Shown: positions 11,619-63,088 of the stretch, piece by piece
How the letters are laid out: the number at the start of each line of letters is the position of its first letter
How positions within the stretch are numbered: the stretch's first letter is position 1
Assembly: GCA_963666055.2 (NCBI GenBank)
Contig: CAXWPH010000015.1
Span: 1,632,001-1,696,000 of the forward strand
Reading direction: 5' to 3'
DNA from: Acidobacteriota bacterium
GTDB lineage: Bacteria > Acidobacteriota > UBA890 > WLXD01
Length of the DNA stretch: 64,000 nt
The notes under the pieces: model-generated
The model's database searches: none
Told to the model about the DNA's origin: nothing
Seen by the model: only the letters and a program-made list of their open reading frames with translations
Program-made: the position numbers and the translations under genes

Positions 11619-12587
11619 GTGCGCAGTCAGCTCGCTGTTGCGTTGTTTCTGGTAGCGTGCGTAGGCACGTCGTGCGCCAACCTCCGGGTCGCTGAGCCAC
11701 CAACCGGCGGGCCGGGCGCCACGCGGCCCTCATTCGCGGCCCGCGAGCCTGTCCGCGTCGTCATCATGTGCGCCGTCCAGTCCGAGCTCGAAAAGTTGCT
11801 GGTGGCGTCGCGCATAGACGCCACCCGCGAGCTCGCTGGCCGGACGCACCACGTGGGCAACCTCGAGGGACACCCCGTGGTGCTGTTGCTTGCCGGCGTC
11901 AGCATGGTCAATGCGGCGGCCGCGACGCAGGCGGTCATCGATCACTTCGAGGTGGGAGCGATCATCTTCTCGGGTATCGCCGGCGGAGCGAACCCTGGCT
12001 TGAACATTGGCGATGTGACCGTTCCGGCACGCTGGGGCCAACATCAGGAGATGGTGTTCGCCCGCCATACGCCCGATGGCTGGGATACTGGCGGTCGCGC
12101 CAACGAGTTCACCAACTTTGGCATGATGTTCCCGCGCGGGCAGCTGCTGCCGGGGGCACAGATCGACTCACAACGTGGCGAGCGACGTTTCTGGTTCTCG
12201 GTTGACGAGCGCATGCTGGCGCACGCCCGCGAGCTTGCCGGAGAGTTTGTGCTGAAGCGCTGCGCCGGCTCCGGCGAGTGCCTCGACAAGACGCCGCGTC
12301 TGGTCGTCGGTGGCAACGGCGTGTCGGGGCCGACCTTCCTCGACAATACTGCCTTCCGCGAGTGGATCTGGGACACCTTCGAGGCCGACGCGGTGGATAT
12401 GGAGACGGCCGCCGTGGCTCAGGTGGCGGCACTCAACGGCACGCGATTTCTGGCCTTTCGCTCGCTATCAGACTTGGCCGGGGGCGCAGCGGGAGGTAAC
12501 CAGATTCGAACGTTCAGGCGCCTGGCGGCCGACAACTCTGCCACCGTCCTGCTGCGGTTCTTGCGCCGCTGGCGTGGTGTCGACTAG
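11619..12587 (+). CDS. MTA/SAH nucleosidase-like phosphorylase (PNP_UDP family), probably exported
   Basis: GVSMVNAA, FSGIAGG, VDMETAAVAQV and RSLSDLAGG motifs; AGGAGG RBS. Confidence 0.88.
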   Translation: MRSQLAVALFLVACVGTSCANLRVAEPPTGGPGATRPSFAAREPVRVVIMCAVQSELEKLLVASRIDATRELAGRTHHVGNLEGHPVVLLLAGVSMVNAAAATQAVIDHFEVGAIIFSGIAGGANPGLNIGDVTVPARWGQHQEMVFARHTPDGWDTGGRANEFTNFGMMFPRGQLLPGAQIDSQRGERRFWFSVDERMLAHARELAGEFVLKRCAGSGECLDKTPRLVVGGNGVSGPTFLDNTAFREWIWDTFEADAVDMETAAVAQVAALNGTRFLAFRSLSDLAGGAAGGNQIRTFRRLAADNSATVLLRFLRRWRGVD

Positions 12588-12861
12588 TGGCCTGTAACAG
12601 ATGATCGTTGCAACTCGTGGTGGCGAAATGGGTGCGGATGCCAGGCGCGACGACGAGACGATGTTTGCCCATCGTGGAGGAGGAGCAACGCCGCAGACGG
12701 GCCGATTTCGCCGCCATCCTGCGGACAGATGGGCAGTTGCGGGCGATCTCGGCGTTGCGCCTCGTCGACGATGCCCACTGCATCGCCCTCCTCGCCGCGC
12801 CTTGATCTCACCCGTAAATCCCATCTGCCATATGCAACGATCATCTGTTACAGGCCACTGG
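12584..12861. mobile_element. MITE-like element, TIR type A (278 bp)
   Basis: Perfect 27-bp TIR AGTGGCCTGTAACAGATGATCGTTGCA (12586-12612 / 12833-12859); CTAG left and CTGG right; no transposase. Confidence 0.85.
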
Positions 12862-26661: not shown

Positions 26662-26913
26662 TCAGATCGAGCCCTCGGTCTTGGCGAACGAGGAGTCCTT
26701 GTCGCCGCCAAACCGATACCCGCCGCTGAAACCGATCTTCTTGTGCTCGATCGCAATCACCTGCGAGCTGTTGAGCACCACGGTCGCTTGCTCACCCTCG
26801 ATCGAGGCGGCCTTGCGTGGCAGTAGCTCGACGAACCTGCCATCGCACAGGAAGCGCGCATCGTCCGCCTCGATGACGGTGTCGTCGGTGAGCTCGATCT
26901 CATAGCGCGCCAT
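26662..26913 (-). CDS. Small hypothetical protein (83 aa)
   Basis: Globular-looking sequence; extended -10 TGGTAAAAT 8 nt before the ATG. Confidence 0.65.
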   Translation of the reverse strand: MARYEIELTDDTVIEADDARFLCDGRFVELLPRKAASIEGEQATVVLNSSQVIAIEHKKIGFSGGYRFGGDKDSSFAKTEGSI

Positions 26914-26949: not shown

Positions 26950-27228
26950 CTAGCAGGCCGTGGTGGAAGTGTGACGGGCCTGGCGACAGGGTCTTGCGAG
27001 GTGGAGGCAAGGAGAGAGAAGGAGGCGATGGTTACCCCATCGTCGACGACGAACGACGCAGTATACGCGCGCAACCCCCTGTCGCCCAAAGGGTTACGGC
27101 GATTCGGGGCCATCTGCAGCGTTGGCCTTCCTCGACGATGGCTAGGGCATCGCCAGTGTCAGGCCGCCTTGCATCTGGCCCCAACTCGCCGCAACCAGGC
27201 CCGCCACACTTTCACCACGGCCTGCTAG
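26950..27228. mobile_element. MITE-like element, TIR type B, full copy 1 (279 bp)
   Basis: CTAGCAGGCCGTGGTGGAAGTGTG ... CACACTTTCACCACGGCCTGCTAG; close homolog at 62810-63088. Confidence 0.92.
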
Positions 27229-28484: not shown

Positions 28485-29886
28485 CACCGAGCTGGCGGCG
28501 GCGTTGCGACGCCTGCGCCAGGTCGCGGAGGCAATGAACGAGCAGGTCGCCGATGGCCCGGTTTCCAAGTCGCGCACCGTGGCCGACGTACGCGCCCGGA
28601 TCGATGGTCTCTTCGATCTTGCCGAACCGACCTCACCCGACGAGCTAGTCGAACGGGTTGTCGAGCGGTTGGCGGCCGACACCGTGCAGGTCACTCACCC
28701 GCGCTACTTCGGGCTCTTCAACCCCGCTGTTCCGCCGATCACGGTGGTCGCGGATGCCCTGGTGGCGATGTTCAACCCACAGCTTGCTGCATGGGAGCAT
28801 TCGCCTGCGGCTCAGGAGATGGAGCGCCTGGTGCTCGGCGCGCTGGGACGGCTTGTCGGCCTGGAGCTCGACGGCGGCATGGCCCACTTCACCAGCGGTG
28901 GCGCCGAGGCCAACGGTACCGCGACGCTGGCGGCGCTGGTGGCGGCGTTCCCGGCTCTGCCTGCGACCGGACTGCGAGCGCTGCCGGCGCAACCAACGCT
29001 CTATCTTTCCGGGCAAGGTCACGACACCTTCTTGAAGATCGCCGTTGCCTGTGGGCTGGGCCGGAAGGCGGTGCGGCGTGTCCCGGTTGACGACGACTTC
29101 CGCATGGACGTGGCGGCGTTGCGCGATCAGCTGCGCCGAGACCGAGCCCGCGGTGAGCAGCCGTTTCTGGTGGTCGGGACCGCCGGCACGACATCGACGG
29201 GAGTGATCGACCCGCTCGAGTCGATCGCCGAGGTGGCGAGCGAAGAGCGTCTCTGGATGCACGCCGACGCCGCCTGGGGCGGTGGTGCGCTCCTGTCGGA
29301 GCGCCTCCGACCGGCGCTTGCCGGCATCGACGCGGCTGATTCGATCACCTGGGACGCGCACAAGTGGCTATCGGTGCCGATGGCCGCCGGTATGTTCTTC
29401 AGCCGCCGTCCCGCCGCCGTACGCGCCGCGTTCGACGTCCACGCGACGTATGTGCCGCCCAGTCCCGAAGGCGCTGACGATCCCTATACGGTGTCGTGGC
29501 AGTGGAGCCGTCGGTTCATCGGCCTGAAGGTGTTCATGGCTCTGGCCGAGGTCGGGCTGCAGGGCTACGGGGAGCGCGTCGAGCATCAGGCGGATATGGG
29601 CGATCGCTTGCGACGACGATTGCGGGAATCCGGCTGGTTGCTGTGCAACCGTACTCCGCTGCCACTGGTGTGCTTCAGCCATCCGCAGATCGAATCCGGC
29701 CACACCACCGCGCCCGAGGTGGTGGCGCGGGTCATCGCCTCGGGGCAGGCTTGGGCCTCGACGATTCGCCTGCCCACCGGCGCGGAGGTCATTCGCGCCT
29801 GCGTCTGCAACTATCGCACCAGCCCCGAAGATATCGATGCCACCGTGCGTGCGTTCGACAGCGCGCTACCGATGACCGATGGCTAG
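28477..29886 (+). CDS. Group II PLP-dependent decarboxylase
   Basis: HPRYFG, TSGGAEAN, GTAGTT, HADAAWGG and PLP lysine DAHKW. Confidence 0.92.
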   Translation: MPDTELAAALRRLRQVAEAMNEQVADGPVSKSRTVADVRARIDGLFDLAEPTSPDELVERVVERLAADTVQVTHPRYFGLFNPAVPPITVVADALVAMFNPQLAAWEHSPAAQEMERLVLGALGRLVGLELDGGMAHFTSGGAEANGTATLAALVAAFPALPATGLRALPAQPTLYLSGQGHDTFLKIAVACGLGRKAVRRVPVDDDFRMDVAALRDQLRRDRARGEQPFLVVGTAGTTSTGVIDPLESIAEVASEERLWMHADAAWGGGALLSERLRPALAGIDAADSITWDAHKWLSVPMAAGMFFSRRPAAVRAAFDVHATYVPPSPEGADDPYTVSWQWSRRFIGLKVFMALAEVGLQGYGERVEHQADMGDRLRRRLRESGWLLCNRTPLPLVCFSHPQIESGHTTAPEVVARVIASGQAWASTIRLPTGAEVIRACVCNYRTSPEDIDATVRAFDSALPMTDG

Positions 29887-29918
29887 CGGCAGGCCGCACT
29901 TCCACCACGGCCTGCTAG
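29883..29918. mobile_element. Collapsed 36-bp TIR type B element
   Basis: CTAGCGGCAGGCCGCACTTCCACCACGGCCTGCTAG; overlaps the stop codons of both convergent genes. Confidence 0.8.
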
Positions 29919-37852: not shown

Positions 37853-37889
37853 CTAGCAGACCGTGGTGGAGGTGTTGTGGGCCTGCTAA
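37853..37889. mobile_element. Collapsed TIR type B element
   Basis: CTAGCAGACCGTGGTGGAGGTGTTGTGGGCCTGCTAA; overlaps the halogenase stop. Confidence 0.75.
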
Positions 37890-39160
37890 CGCTCGCTGGT
37901 AGTTTCCTGGAGTCTGAACGGCTCGTACGCCGGCAATGCGCAGAACTTCTCCATCGACTCTAGCAGTCGGCTGAGGTTTTTTCTGTAGACATTGCCGATC
38001 AACAGGTTCACCAGCTCGTCCTTGACGTCGGGGAACTGGCCCAGAAACTCCGCGAAGCTGAACTCGTTCGAATAGTAGGCGTAGACGAGCTTGCGCATCG
38101 CTTCGACGCCCTCGAGGAACTCGTTGCCGTGCCGCCCGAGCCGCTCGGCCGATAGCTCTGCATGCTCGAACGCGTCGAGGATCGAGTCGGCGGCGTATTC
38201 GGCGCCCTTGAGCGCCAGGAATACTCCCGACGAGTAGATCGGATCGATGAAGCCGAAAGCGTCGCCTACCATCACCCAGCCGTCGCCTGCGACGCGCTGG
38301 CTGGCGTATGAGAAGTCTCTGAGGACTCGGACCTCGTGTAGCTGCTTGGCCCCATCGATCCTCTCCAGCAGCGCCGGGCAACCGGCGGCCTCCTCGTCGT
38401 AAACGCGCTGCGGGTTCTTGGTGCGGCCCTTCACGAGGCGATCGATGGGTCCCACCACGCCAGCGCTGACCACTCCGTCCGGCAACGGGATGTACCAAAA
38501 CCAGGTTCTCGGCTGGCTCGTGTAAAAAATCAGCGTCGCTCCCTCGTCGACGCCCTCGCCGCGCCAGCCACCGCTATAGCGCGTATAGAAGGAGCAGTTC
38601 ATCAGGTTGGGATCCACTTGTCTGAGCTTCAGGCGCTTGGCGAGCATGGCCGACTGCCCGGTGGCGTCGACCACCACGCCGGCCTCGAGGCGATGCGTCG
38701 ACCCGTCGGCGAATCGTGCCTCGACACCGCGAGCGCGATCGCCGTCGAATAGCACCTCGGTGGCGCGGGCACGTTCGTGCACTTCCACGCCGTGCTCGCG
38801 GGCGTTGTTCAGCAACATCTGGTCGAAGGCACTGCGGTCGACTTGCCAGGTCTGGGCGCTCGGTCCCGGTTCGGTCTCGGAGAAATAGAACGGTACCGAA
38901 CCGTGACCGTTGGCGGAGAAGAACTGCACCGAGTGCTTGTGGGGGAAGCGGCTGCCCTTCATCTGCTCGAGCACGCCAAGGCGCTCGAGCGTCCAGTAGG
39001 TGGCCGGCATGAGCGACTCGCCGATGCGAAAGCGGGGGAACTGCTCGCGTTCGAGAAGTAGCACGCGGAGCCCGCCGTCCGCGGTCAACGTTGCCGTCGC
39101 CGACCCAGCCGGACCACCGCCCACGACGATGACGTCGTAGGCATCAGCCTCGGGAGACAT
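37886..39160 (-). CDS. Flavin-dependent halogenase-family oxidoreductase
   Basis: GGGPAG, FPRFRIGES, candidate catalytic Lys (FPHKH), WFWYIP (WxWxIP), GDAFGFIDPIYSSG. Confidence 0.85.
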   Translation of the reverse strand: MSPEADAYDVIVVGGGPAGSATATLTADGGLRVLLLEREQFPRFRIGESLMPATYWTLERLGVLEQMKGSRFPHKHSVQFFSANGHGSVPFYFSETEPGPSAQTWQVDRSAFDQMLLNNAREHGVEVHERARATEVLFDGDRARGVEARFADGSTHRLEAGVVVDATGQSAMLAKRLKLRQVDPNLMNCSFYTRYSGGWRGEGVDEGATLIFYTSQPRTWFWYIPLPDGVVSAGVVGPIDRLVKGRTKNPQRVYDEEAAGCPALLERIDGAKQLHEVRVLRDFSYASQRVAGDGWVMVGDAFGFIDPIYSSGVFLALKGAEYAADSILDAFEHAELSAERLGRHGNEFLEGVEAMRKLVYAYYSNEFSFAEFLGQFPDVKDELVNLLIGNVYRKNLSRLLESMEKFCALPAYEPFRLQETTSER

Positions 39161-46367: not shown

Positions 46368-46408
46368 CTAGCAGGCCGGGGTGGAAATGTGGCGGGCCTG
46401 GCGACAGA
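46368..46408. mobile_element. Left-end fragment of a TIR type B element
   Basis: CTAGCAGGCCGGGGTGGAAATGTGGCGGGCCTGGCGACAG matches the first ~40 nt of the 26950 copy. Confidence 0.8.
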
Positions 46409-50122: not shown

Positions 50123-51364
50123 TCAGTGCGCGTGCCGCGTGGCGGCGCCCAGATGCTCGATGGCCTGGCTGAGTTGGTTGTCGTCGAGGTAAGGCGCCGG
50201 GCCGAGACGTAGTACGTCGGCGCGGCAGTCGGTGTGAACGCCGCGCTCGCCAAGGCGTCGGCTGAGCTTGGCGGCGTCTGCCGAGCGCAGCGCCAGGAAG
50301 CCACCCAGCTGGCTCAGCGGGGTGCGGCGATCGCGCGACACAATGTCGGGGTCGAGATCCAGCGCGTCGAAGGCGGTGGCCAGCAGACCGACCTGGTGCT
50401 GGCTAACTTCTCGCAAGAGCTCGGGCGCGAGGCCCACGCGCTCGAAGAAATCGAATACCTCGGCGGCCCGGTAGTGCGCTGTCGGATCGTAGGTGGCGCC
50501 GGCGAACCGTGCGGCACCGTGTGCGTACACGACCTTGCCGAGATCTGCCTCGCTGAGCGTGTCGAACTCGGCGAACCAGCCGGTGACTACCGGGCGCAGC
50601 GCACAGCTCGGTGGGAGGCGCAGAAAGCAGTTGCCCTCGCCCAGCTGGCAGTACTTGTAGCCGCCACCCACGATGAACGCGGTCTCAAGGCCGAGCCCGC
50701 GCACCGAGAAGGGGATCACGTTGAGCGCGTGGTAAACATCGACGAGCAGCTCGGTTCCCGAGCGCTCGCAGGCGGCGCACAGGTGCTCGAGATGCGGAAC
50801 ACGCTTGGCGCTTTGGAACATCACCTGGGAGACGGCCACCAGCGCGGTACGGTCGTCGATGGTGGCCGCGAGGCGCTCTGCCAGGGTCTCGATCGGCTCC
50901 GTCGCGAGCTTGACCACCTCAATCTGCTCCTCGGCGAGTCGATCGAGCTGTCGCCGCAAGGTGTGAAACTCGCCGTCCGTGGTGATGAGGCGCGGTCGCT
51001 GACGGAGAGGCAGTGCCGACAACAGACGCACCACTAACTCATGGGTGTTAGGGCCGAGCGCGATGGTGTCGTCGTCGTCGTCGAGAAGCTGTGCCCAGCC
51101 GTGACGCACGCGCTGCGCTTTGGCGAACGCCCGCTCCCATTTTTGATCGACAAGCTCGGCGGCATCGATCCACGCCTGGCGTTGACCGTCGAAACCGCAA
51201 TCGGGCCAGGCTTGGTGGGAGTGGCCGGTCAATAGAAGCCGCTCGGCTACCCGGAAGTGTTTGTAGTAGCCAGTCAGGGCGTTCGGGGTGGCGTAGAGCT
51301 GCGCGGCGTCGAGTGGCGCAGGAAGGGCCGGATCCTCGCTGCGTGCGGTTAAGACAGGCACCAC
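50123..51364 (-). CDS. kynU: Kynureninase (class V PLP enzyme)
   Basis: DVYHALNV, GGGYKYCQLGEG, TGWF, RFAGAT, LRLGPAP; directly downstream of TDO. Start uncertain. Confidence 0.75.
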   Translation of the reverse strand: MVPVLTARSEDPALPAPLDAAQLYATPNALTGYYKHFRVAERLLLTGHSHQAWPDCGFDGQRQAWIDAAELVDQKWERAFAKAQRVRHGWAQLLDDDDDTIALGPNTHELVVRLLSALPLRQRPRLITTDGEFHTLRRQLDRLAEEQIEVVKLATEPIETLAERLAATIDDRTALVAVSQVMFQSAKRVPHLEHLCAACERSGTELLVDVYHALNVIPFSVRGLGLETAFIVGGGYKYCQLGEGNCFLRLPPSCALRPVVTGWFAEFDTLSEADLGKVVYAHGAARFAGATYDPTAHYRAAEVFDFFERVGLAPELLREVSQHQVGLLATAFDALDLDPDIVSRDRRTPLSQLGGFLALRSADAAKLSRRLGERGVHTDCRADVLRLGPAPYLDDNQLSQAIEHLGAATRHAH

Positions 51365-51385
51365 ACTTTCACCACGGCCTGCTAG
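51362..51385. mobile_element. Right-end TIR type B fragment
   Basis: CACACTTTCACCACGGCCTGCTAG, identical to the right end of the full copies; overlaps the kynA stop. Confidence 0.85.
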
Positions 51386-62787: not shown

Positions 62788-62813
62788 CTAGTGGATCTGT
62801 TACCGGCCACTAG
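62788..62813. mobile_element. Collapsed TIR type A element abutting the type B copy
   Basis: CTAGTGGATCTGTTACCGGCCACTAG retains both ends of the 12584 element and shares its right CTAG with the next element. Confidence 0.75.
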
Positions 62814-63088
62814 CAGACCGTGGTGAAAGTGTGGTGGATCTGGCGACAGGGTCTTGCGAAGTGGAGGCAAGGAGAGAGGAGGAGGCGATGGATACCCCAT
62901 CGTTGACGAGGAACGACGCAGGATACGCGCGCAACCCCCTGTCGCCCGAAGAGTTACGTCGATTTGGGGCCATCTGCGGTGTTGGCCTTTCTCGACGATG
63001 GCCGGGGCATCGCCAGTGTCAGGCCGCCTTGCATCTGGCCCCAACTCGCCGTAACCAGACCCACCACACTTTCACCACGGCCTGCTAG
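62810..63088. mobile_element. MITE-like element, TIR type B, full copy 2 (279 bp)
   Basis: Colinear with and the same length as 26950-27228; CTAG at both ends. Confidence 0.92.

Follow-up and report, generated by a model that had tools for sequence, protein, structure and literature searches.

The 279-bp repeat analysed here is a real non-coding MITE and not a REPIN. Judged from a literature search and Rfam 15, it represents an undescribed MITE family of a known kind, and its conserved structured interior outlives its ends across phyla and overlaps the enterobacterial repeat ERIC. The element targets CTAG, an IS1182/IS5-like DDE transposase likely mobilises it in trans, and its old, folded two-arm interior is likely kept as a propagation aid; for this reading as a whole we estimate a probability of roughly 0.55. 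The analysis started from a stretch of 64,000 nucleotides of an Acidobacteriota contig (the window), and was extended to the 5.7-Mb genome to which the window belongs (G000) and to other genomes.

The window contains two colinear copies, as the first-pass annotation had reported, and they differ at 24 of 279 positions (Table 1). The stems and the two oppositely oriented cores described there were all recovered, with the cores located and scored by a covariance model and with one mismatch in each of the quoted stems. Each copy consists of a long terminal stem (34 bp) that encloses two arms. The folding z-score was -8.6 as DNA and -9.3 as RNA, and none of 200 shuffled sequences folded as well. 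Covariation in the terminal stem had also been claimed, and this was borne out for two pairs: when the copies are compared, true compensation is seen at element positions 26/254 and 30/250 alone, while the differences at stem positions 8, 17, 25 and 29 are one-sided. The pattern is a subfamily difference, and within G000 three positions, linked to one another, make up the terminal covariation and separate two subfamilies, besides which chimeras occur. The first-pass annotation had seen no mobilising enzyme in the window, and indeed a transposase of the matching type was found neither there nor elsewhere in the genome. The suggested comparison with Rfam 15 yielded no family at the gathering threshold in the window, where only sub-threshold matches to miRNA hairpins occurred, and none on the element in 20 distant loci.

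Table 1. Copies, parts and relatives of the MITE in the window.
Feature	Position	Strand	Remark
Copy 1, full MITE, CTAG flanks on both sides	26950..27228	+	should TA be the duplicated target, the element itself spans 26953-27225 (273 bp)
Left 21-bp IS-type end, CTAG included	26950..26970	+	differs at 1 position from the left end of the G011 IS1182/IS5-like element
Right IS-type end	27208..27228	-	21/21 bases shared with the left end of the G011 IS1182/IS5-like element
Neck, prolonging the terminal stem past the IS-matching part	26971..26983	+	pairs with 27195-27207; carries both compensated pairs
Arm 1 core, plus-strand reading	26994..27076	+	59.6 bits; in this genus it has decayed in part
Mini-hairpin CCC-NNN-GGG that links the arms at the centre	27085..27093	+	GAA in 64/89 aligned rows; AAA in copy 1
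Arm 2 core, minus-strand reading	27102..27184	-	89.7 bits; its internal CTAG receives nested insertions
Copy 2, full MITE	62810..63088	+	right CTAG is the TAG stop of a convergent beta-lactamase-family (PF00144) gene
First core of copy 2	62854..62936	+	
Second core of copy 2	62962..63044	-	
26-bp remnant, IS630-type ends	62788..62813	.	inserted at the CTAG of copy 2; not present at the empty G002 site
278-bp sister element with the two-arm interior of the MITE and IS630-type ends	12584..12861	-	a phosphorylase-family gene has its TAG stop in one end
Collapsed mini-copy, one end and a short palindrome	29883..29918	-	at a predicted TAG stop
Degenerate solo end	37853..37890	+	
Truncated left end	46368..46408	+	
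Solo end	51358..51385	-	at a predicted TAG stop

A frame that follows an internal ATG is open to the element end in this genus, and it is shifted or stopped in most of 36 aligned elements. A frame of 66 codons, preceded by a purine run, was rejected as a gene, since it is not conserved across the 36 elements. No promoter-like site was found in the element, and one weak terminator-like site was. An 83-codon open reading frame that adjoins copy 1 (26662-26913, minus strand) has no Pfam match, and its DNA sequence is conserved in four sister genomes.

In the sister genome G002 both insertion sites of the window (2/2) are empty and each holds one CTAG; the net insertion is 275 bases. In two further genomes, G003 and G004, independent copies of reduced length stand at an adjacent CTAG close to the first site. 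In 8 of 87 copies of G000 an outer flank base deviates, and in no case does the deviating base return at the opposite end; the outer-base variants in 34 foreign copies behave likewise. Because such variants never recur at the opposite end, a duplication of TA within a preference for CTAG is favoured, with later mutation as a possible source of the variants, and TA thus appears to be the duplicated target. Together with the terminal inverted repeats, the small size, the non-coding nature and the ends shared with an IS (see below), the empty sites with a TA duplication place the element among the type II MITEs. It was present in 23 of 41 genomes searched, at full length and with 71-95% identity, in two families of the order, of which 21 of 26 genomes carry it. 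Plasmids, phages and viral contigs contained no match to the element.

A genome-wide collection of copies, which had been proposed as a check, yielded 87 full-length copies in G000 (89 match rows minus two wrong-strand self matches), together with 19 derivatives that retain one arm (169-179 bp) and numerous solo ends. The 24-nt end had 397 matches in the genome at up to 4 mismatches, compared to 0 for each of five shuffled patterns, and 82 end pairs are spaced 277-280 bp apart. DNA contigs confirmed the flanks of the MITE and its high copy number. The copies lie at a median of 9 bases from their consensus and include only one identical pair, which argues against a recent burst. At one locus (G000:C15:682748-683160) half of a member of the IS5-ended family is nested at an internal CTAG of a copy and was rejoined by recombination, and at another (G000:C11:160026-160413) four 83-bp right-end tails stand in tandem, apparently via repeated insertion at an internal CTAG. 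Other repeats of the genome include a 38-nt repeat, present about 24 times, and N-terminal kinase-like coding motifs that recur.

The position of the copies relative to genes was determined with our own rough gene calls, which cover about 81% of the sequence and therefore miss some genes. None of the 87 copies lies inside a predicted gene, compared to 2524 of 4803 background CTAG sites (53%). The terminal CTAG coincides with the TAG stop of a gene in 43 of the 87 copies, compared to 509 of 2279 non-coding background sites (p = 8e-8). In tandem gene contexts 41 of 52 copies are oriented along transcription (p = 4e-5), as are 33 of 45 copies relative to the gene that ends at the element, and orientation follows transcription on both putative replication strands (26/31 and 12/18). 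One-arm derivatives showed no preference for the mRNA strand (18 vs 20). The G-rich strand was occupied by 51 of 79 full copies and 15 of 47 single arms, in a genome in which GC skew is weak.

A search for DUF772 over 24 genomes led to a candidate partner of the MITE. Genome G011 contains four copies of a 1505-bp IS, whose 21-bp ends, including the CTAG, match the ends of the MITE, while similarity extends nowhere else. Hence a transposase flanked by the same inverted repeats, which the first-pass annotation had recommended looking for, does exist in G011, but it was found neither in the window nor in G000, and G011 is the only one of 26 genomes of the order in which it was detected. The encoded protein has 472 amino acids, ends on the terminal TAG and carries DUF772 above the cut-off. 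Of six IS models the IS1182 model NF033551 (NCBIfam) fitted it best, with 158.6 bits at a cut-off of 270, and judged from its sequence it is filed as a putative IS1182/IS5-like DDE transposase that is otherwise unclassified. Its closest relatives are mostly from Acidobacteriota, and related transposases in other genomes are framed by CTAG-bounded ends that are similar and differ at a few bases.

Several resident candidates were examined in G000. A tblastn search of this genome with two DUF772 transposases gave no match, and none was obtained with DDE_Tnp_1_6, DDE_5 and Y1_Tnp. The IS5 copies and the IS630 of G000 were rejected as mobilisers, as their ends differ; this IS630 sits at the CTAG of a decayed MITE end. 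Long end pairs (727-5601 bp) enclose ordinary genes and, among the matches listed, no transposase. The MITE is likely mobilised in trans by a predicted IS1182/IS5-like DDE transposase that shares its 21-bp ends, and such an enzyme presumably acted in this lineage formerly and was then lost. In G007, one IS630 directly abuts the MITE's terminal CTAG at 7 of its 9 loci among the matches listed (L297, L304, L307, L310, L312, L314, L316). The MITE ends may be a preferred target of IS630, and also a route to the exchange of ends. This 5.1-Mb genome has undergone a large IS expansion, with at least 150 DUF772 IS5-type matches and 43 IS630 matches.

The conservation of the structure was analysed with two alignments. 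In the table of predicted pairs of a whole-element alignment (36 elements), 53 of 92 pairs are changed on both sides, and 16 pairs occur with three or more Watson-Crick types, which requires repeated independent changes, whatever the tree. For the second alignment arm 1 was combined with the reverse complement of arm 2, which gave 52 arms from 26 of the 36 elements after omission of near-duplicates. All core pair counts were taken on this arm alignment, and the whole-element alignment was used only via its pair table. The arms align as a single core, in which short helices alternate with purine-rich loops like the rungs of a ladder; 93.6% of the cells pair and 17 of 26 core pairs covary. The covariation score of the core was 0.47, compared to 0.05-0.09 for slid controls, and 0 of 500 shuffles reached it, in a test that ignores relatedness and in which a part of the signal stems from the comparison of arm 1 with arm 2. 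The covariance model and covariation analysis that had been advised at the outset thus revealed strong covariation across lineages. The core also contains a near-fixed G-U pair (44 of 52 arms) and tandem GA loops. Its internal loops consist of about 80% purines and are as conserved as the stems: in the 52 arms conservation was 0.79 for internal loops, 0.77 for stems and 0.49 for apical loops, and in a wider set of 83 arms from across phyla the values were 0.75, 0.67 and 0.44, respectively. In 2 of the 36 elements a loop has been converted to perfect pairs.

In contrast to the conservation between lineages, the resident copies decay evenly, with 0.73 rare changes per site in stems and 0.64 outside stems. 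Because rare changes are as frequent in stems as elsewhere, selection of the single copies by the host is not supported; this decay test is weak, as single mismatches barely alter so stable a fold. The claim that selection acts on the structure beyond the terminal inverted repeats accordingly finds support in the conservation of the interior across lineages, but not in the copies residing in one genome.

With the core model a third element was detected in the window, which is colinear with the MITE but has different ends (Table 1). In G000 three end families surround the same interior; all have a length of 278-280 bp, and their interiors are 62-75% identical, compared to 46% after shuffling. 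The ends of the second family and those of IS5-type elements in G005 and G007 differ at 1 of 22 bases, and the ends of the third resemble the IS630 ends of G007; the labels IS5-type and IS630-type for ends rest on such resemblance to IS ends of relatives and on IS model scores. A hybrid (G000:C6:66346-66512) combines one end of this MITE family with the interior and second end of the IS630-ended family; the junction lies in a short motif common to both, and the hybrid might be a possible intermediate of an end swap. A tree of 41 interiors did not reject a single clade for this MITE family (p-AU 0.36) and gives no order of the end swaps.

The core was also found far outside this genome, in searches whose E-values are rough. 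It occurred in 44 of 121 genomes of the element's own phylum (including the unpublished G046) and in 13 of 141 genomes of the phylum of an Alcanivorax record. With a second core model, built from 83 hits, it was found in 20 of 81 genomes of the phylum of a delta-proteobacterial record, in 18 of 61 genomes of the phylum of a Planctomycetota record (genome counts only) and 147 times in one Binatia genome (G281, L233-L252), where six inspected matches turned out to be 165-bp one-arm elements with IS630-type ends. Inspected distant matches are two-arm elements of 266-282 bp or one-arm elements of about 165-180 bp, flanked by TA and by inverted ends of many kinds, and for some a long inverted end was not detectable. 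In 120 metagenome loci, chosen by a core pattern, at least 6 end types precede the core; both ends were present in 48 loci, 30 of which span 261-289 bp. These 120 loci had neither a recurrent neighbouring protein nor a match to the two transposases. Among 165 core-bearing places 102 are head-to-head pairs and none is a tail-to-tail pair. One core-like match lies between 23S and 5S rRNA genes (L214:1501-1579). Taken together, the same two-arm interior of about 270-280 bp stands between IS5-type, IS630-type and other ends in G000 and in four other lineages. The literature searched, which covered few subscription journals, contained no account of this MITE family or of an interior shared across end types.

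The aceF-lpd region of E. coli carries an ERIC and was chosen for a search with the core model on that ground. In 15 kb of this region the top core match falls on the ERIC (E 0.013). In a comparison by eye, 39 bases of this copy are equal to the published consensus as printed in PMC2759123, Table 1a. To lessen the selection bias, all 13 matches of this copy in K-12 were fetched and 40 kb were scanned without filters. The top four core matches, and six of the top eight, fall on ERIC copies, with a best E-value of 2e-6, which is rough; at the other seven K-12 loci, six of which match only part of the query, no core match was found at the repeat. Filtered whole-genome model searches of E. coli K-12, G138, G139 and G140 yielded nothing at E 0.001. 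The match is confined to the basal internal loop and its flanking helices, and in none of the four top matches is the 56-nt apical part aligned. Therefore ERIC shares a sub-module and is not a member of the same family. ERIC (also IRU or RU-1) resembles the MITE in its TA termini and in this basal part, but it has 127 bp, a single stem-loop, an apical part of its own and no long IS-type ends.

Among the known systems, the type II MITEs of bacteria (RUP with IS630-Spn1; Nezha) are described as similarly short, non-coding, intergenic and stably folded, with IS-shared inverted repeats, TA termini and filled and empty sites (PMC2229807, PMC3184786, PMC10969869). In contrast to them, the present MITE is GC-rich, its ends come from an IS1182/IS5-like clade, and its interior is common to elements with ends of other transposase families, for which the cited passages on RUP and Nezha give no counterpart. 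The mobile element bcr1 of the Bacillus cereus group is likewise described as a cruciform with two independent stem-loops kept by compensatory changes (PMC3184786), but by this description it has about 155 bp and 5-bp direct repeats, instead of 279 bp and TA/CTAG. The first-pass annotation had likened the element to REPINs. REPINs and REP-RAYT systems do share two inverted structured units, an extragenic location and a frequent position behind genes. Yet no RAYT was found here, the long inverted repeats match a DDE IS, and TA is duplicated; the REP tag is given as GTAG at one end (PMC3733652), while the MITE has CTAG at both ends, with the standard fifth base, in 69 of 87 copies. Because the ends match a DDE IS and Y1/RAYT is nearly absent from the order (none in G000, 1 of 26 genomes), the element is better regarded as a DDE MITE, and the analogy was abandoned. 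A precedent for an enhancing interior is the rice Stowaway MITE Ost35, whose interior is reported to enhance transposition by a non-cognate transposase, also with replaced inverted repeats (PMC3660474); it belongs to a eukaryotic Tc1/mariner system, and the likeness concerns the way it works, not the sequence.

According to the preferred reading, a borrowed, TA-targeting DDE transposase would move the MITE and duplicate TA. Each strand, when single-stranded or extruded, would fold one core, the purine-rich internal loops of which would be read by a putative partner, most likely a conserved host factor. Its binding would raise the chance of excision, copying or insertion, so that selection would act on propagating lineages while resident copies decay, and the structured module could be repackaged by different TA-targeting transposases. 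The module occurs with IS630-type as well as with IS5/IS1182-type ends, which makes the transposase itself an unlikely reader. The fold probably persists for helping the spread, as the interior recurs between unrelated transposon ends in several phyla and has one loop in common with ERIC. An aid to mobility at the DNA level is favoured by the lineage-wide conservation with even resident decay, the near-constant length and the presence of one core per strand. Several points speak against this reading: the matching transposase was found in only one of 26 genomes of an order in which 21 carry the MITE, and it scores below the IS1182 cut-off; the 120 metagenome loci offered no recurrent neighbouring protein as a partner of the core; the orientation bias fits an effect at the RNA level at least as well; and template switching can create covariation of stems without selection.

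An alternative is that the fold works in RNA, which we consider unlikely but to be reckoned with. Read-through transcripts would fold one core, which would be bound or cut by a conserved host protein, and as a result insertions behind genes would be tolerated or mRNA stability would be tuned. The placement of half of the copies at a stop codon and the orientation along transcription on both putative replication strands favour a role in RNA, and the tandem GA loops and the near-fixed G-U pair are in line with it. The linker can be read both ways: on the minus strand we take it to be a UNCG-type tetraloop, in favour of RNA, and on the plus strand equally a GNA DNA mini-hairpin, against it. The even decay of stems in resident copies, insertion sites that are not kept between sister genomes and the lack of an mRNA-strand preference of the single arms are not expected for this mode of action. 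A further point in its favour is ERIC, which is described as affecting mRNA stability in an orientation-dependent manner in Yersinia (PMC2229807).

A further alternative is an ordinary MITE, in which stems covary only through fold-back copying and gene conversion and the interior is shared by descent and recombination, without any selection of structure. Copies of G000 are indeed mosaic (730 of 1081 pairs of common variants fail the four-gamete test), hybrids between end families exist, and loops have occasionally been corrected to perfect pairs. Such copying can make stems covary, yet it does not explain the persistence of loops: asymmetric loops should vanish, but across phyla they are at least as conserved as stems while the apical loops drift, and the basal loop persists into ERIC. 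We thus regard this explanation as improbable. Still less probable, in our view, is a REPIN-like origin, with the core as the substrate of a HUH/Y1 enzyme on single-stranded DNA and the IS-type ends as captured passengers. It would account for strand-specific cores in an inverted pair, for the excess of head-to-head places and for the occurrence of the module with many ends. It is at odds with the near absence of Y1_Tnp, with boundaries that coincide exactly with IS ends and with TA/CTAG at empty sites, and with the 120 metagenome loci, in which no transposase-like or recurrent neighbour was found.

A wider proposal is more tentative and held at somewhat less than even odds, namely that a cross-phylum superfamily of bacterial repeats is characterised by one strand-specific hairpin module rather than by its ends. 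The module would have recruited the ends of several unrelated TA-targeting transposases, ERIC would be a one-arm member, and a conserved host protein would read the module and thereby boost mobility. Bacterial MITEs are usually seen as IS ends around a disposable filler, whereas here the filler is conserved and the ends are exchangeable. The covariance model detects a class of repeats outside Rfam 15; without a function for the core, it would remain an undescribed MITE family. Should the filler prove to be the conserved part and the ends exchangeable, a set of repeats that now bear separate names, ERIC included, would have a functional module in common, and the old questions of ERIC's mobility and of the persistence of its fold would become testable.
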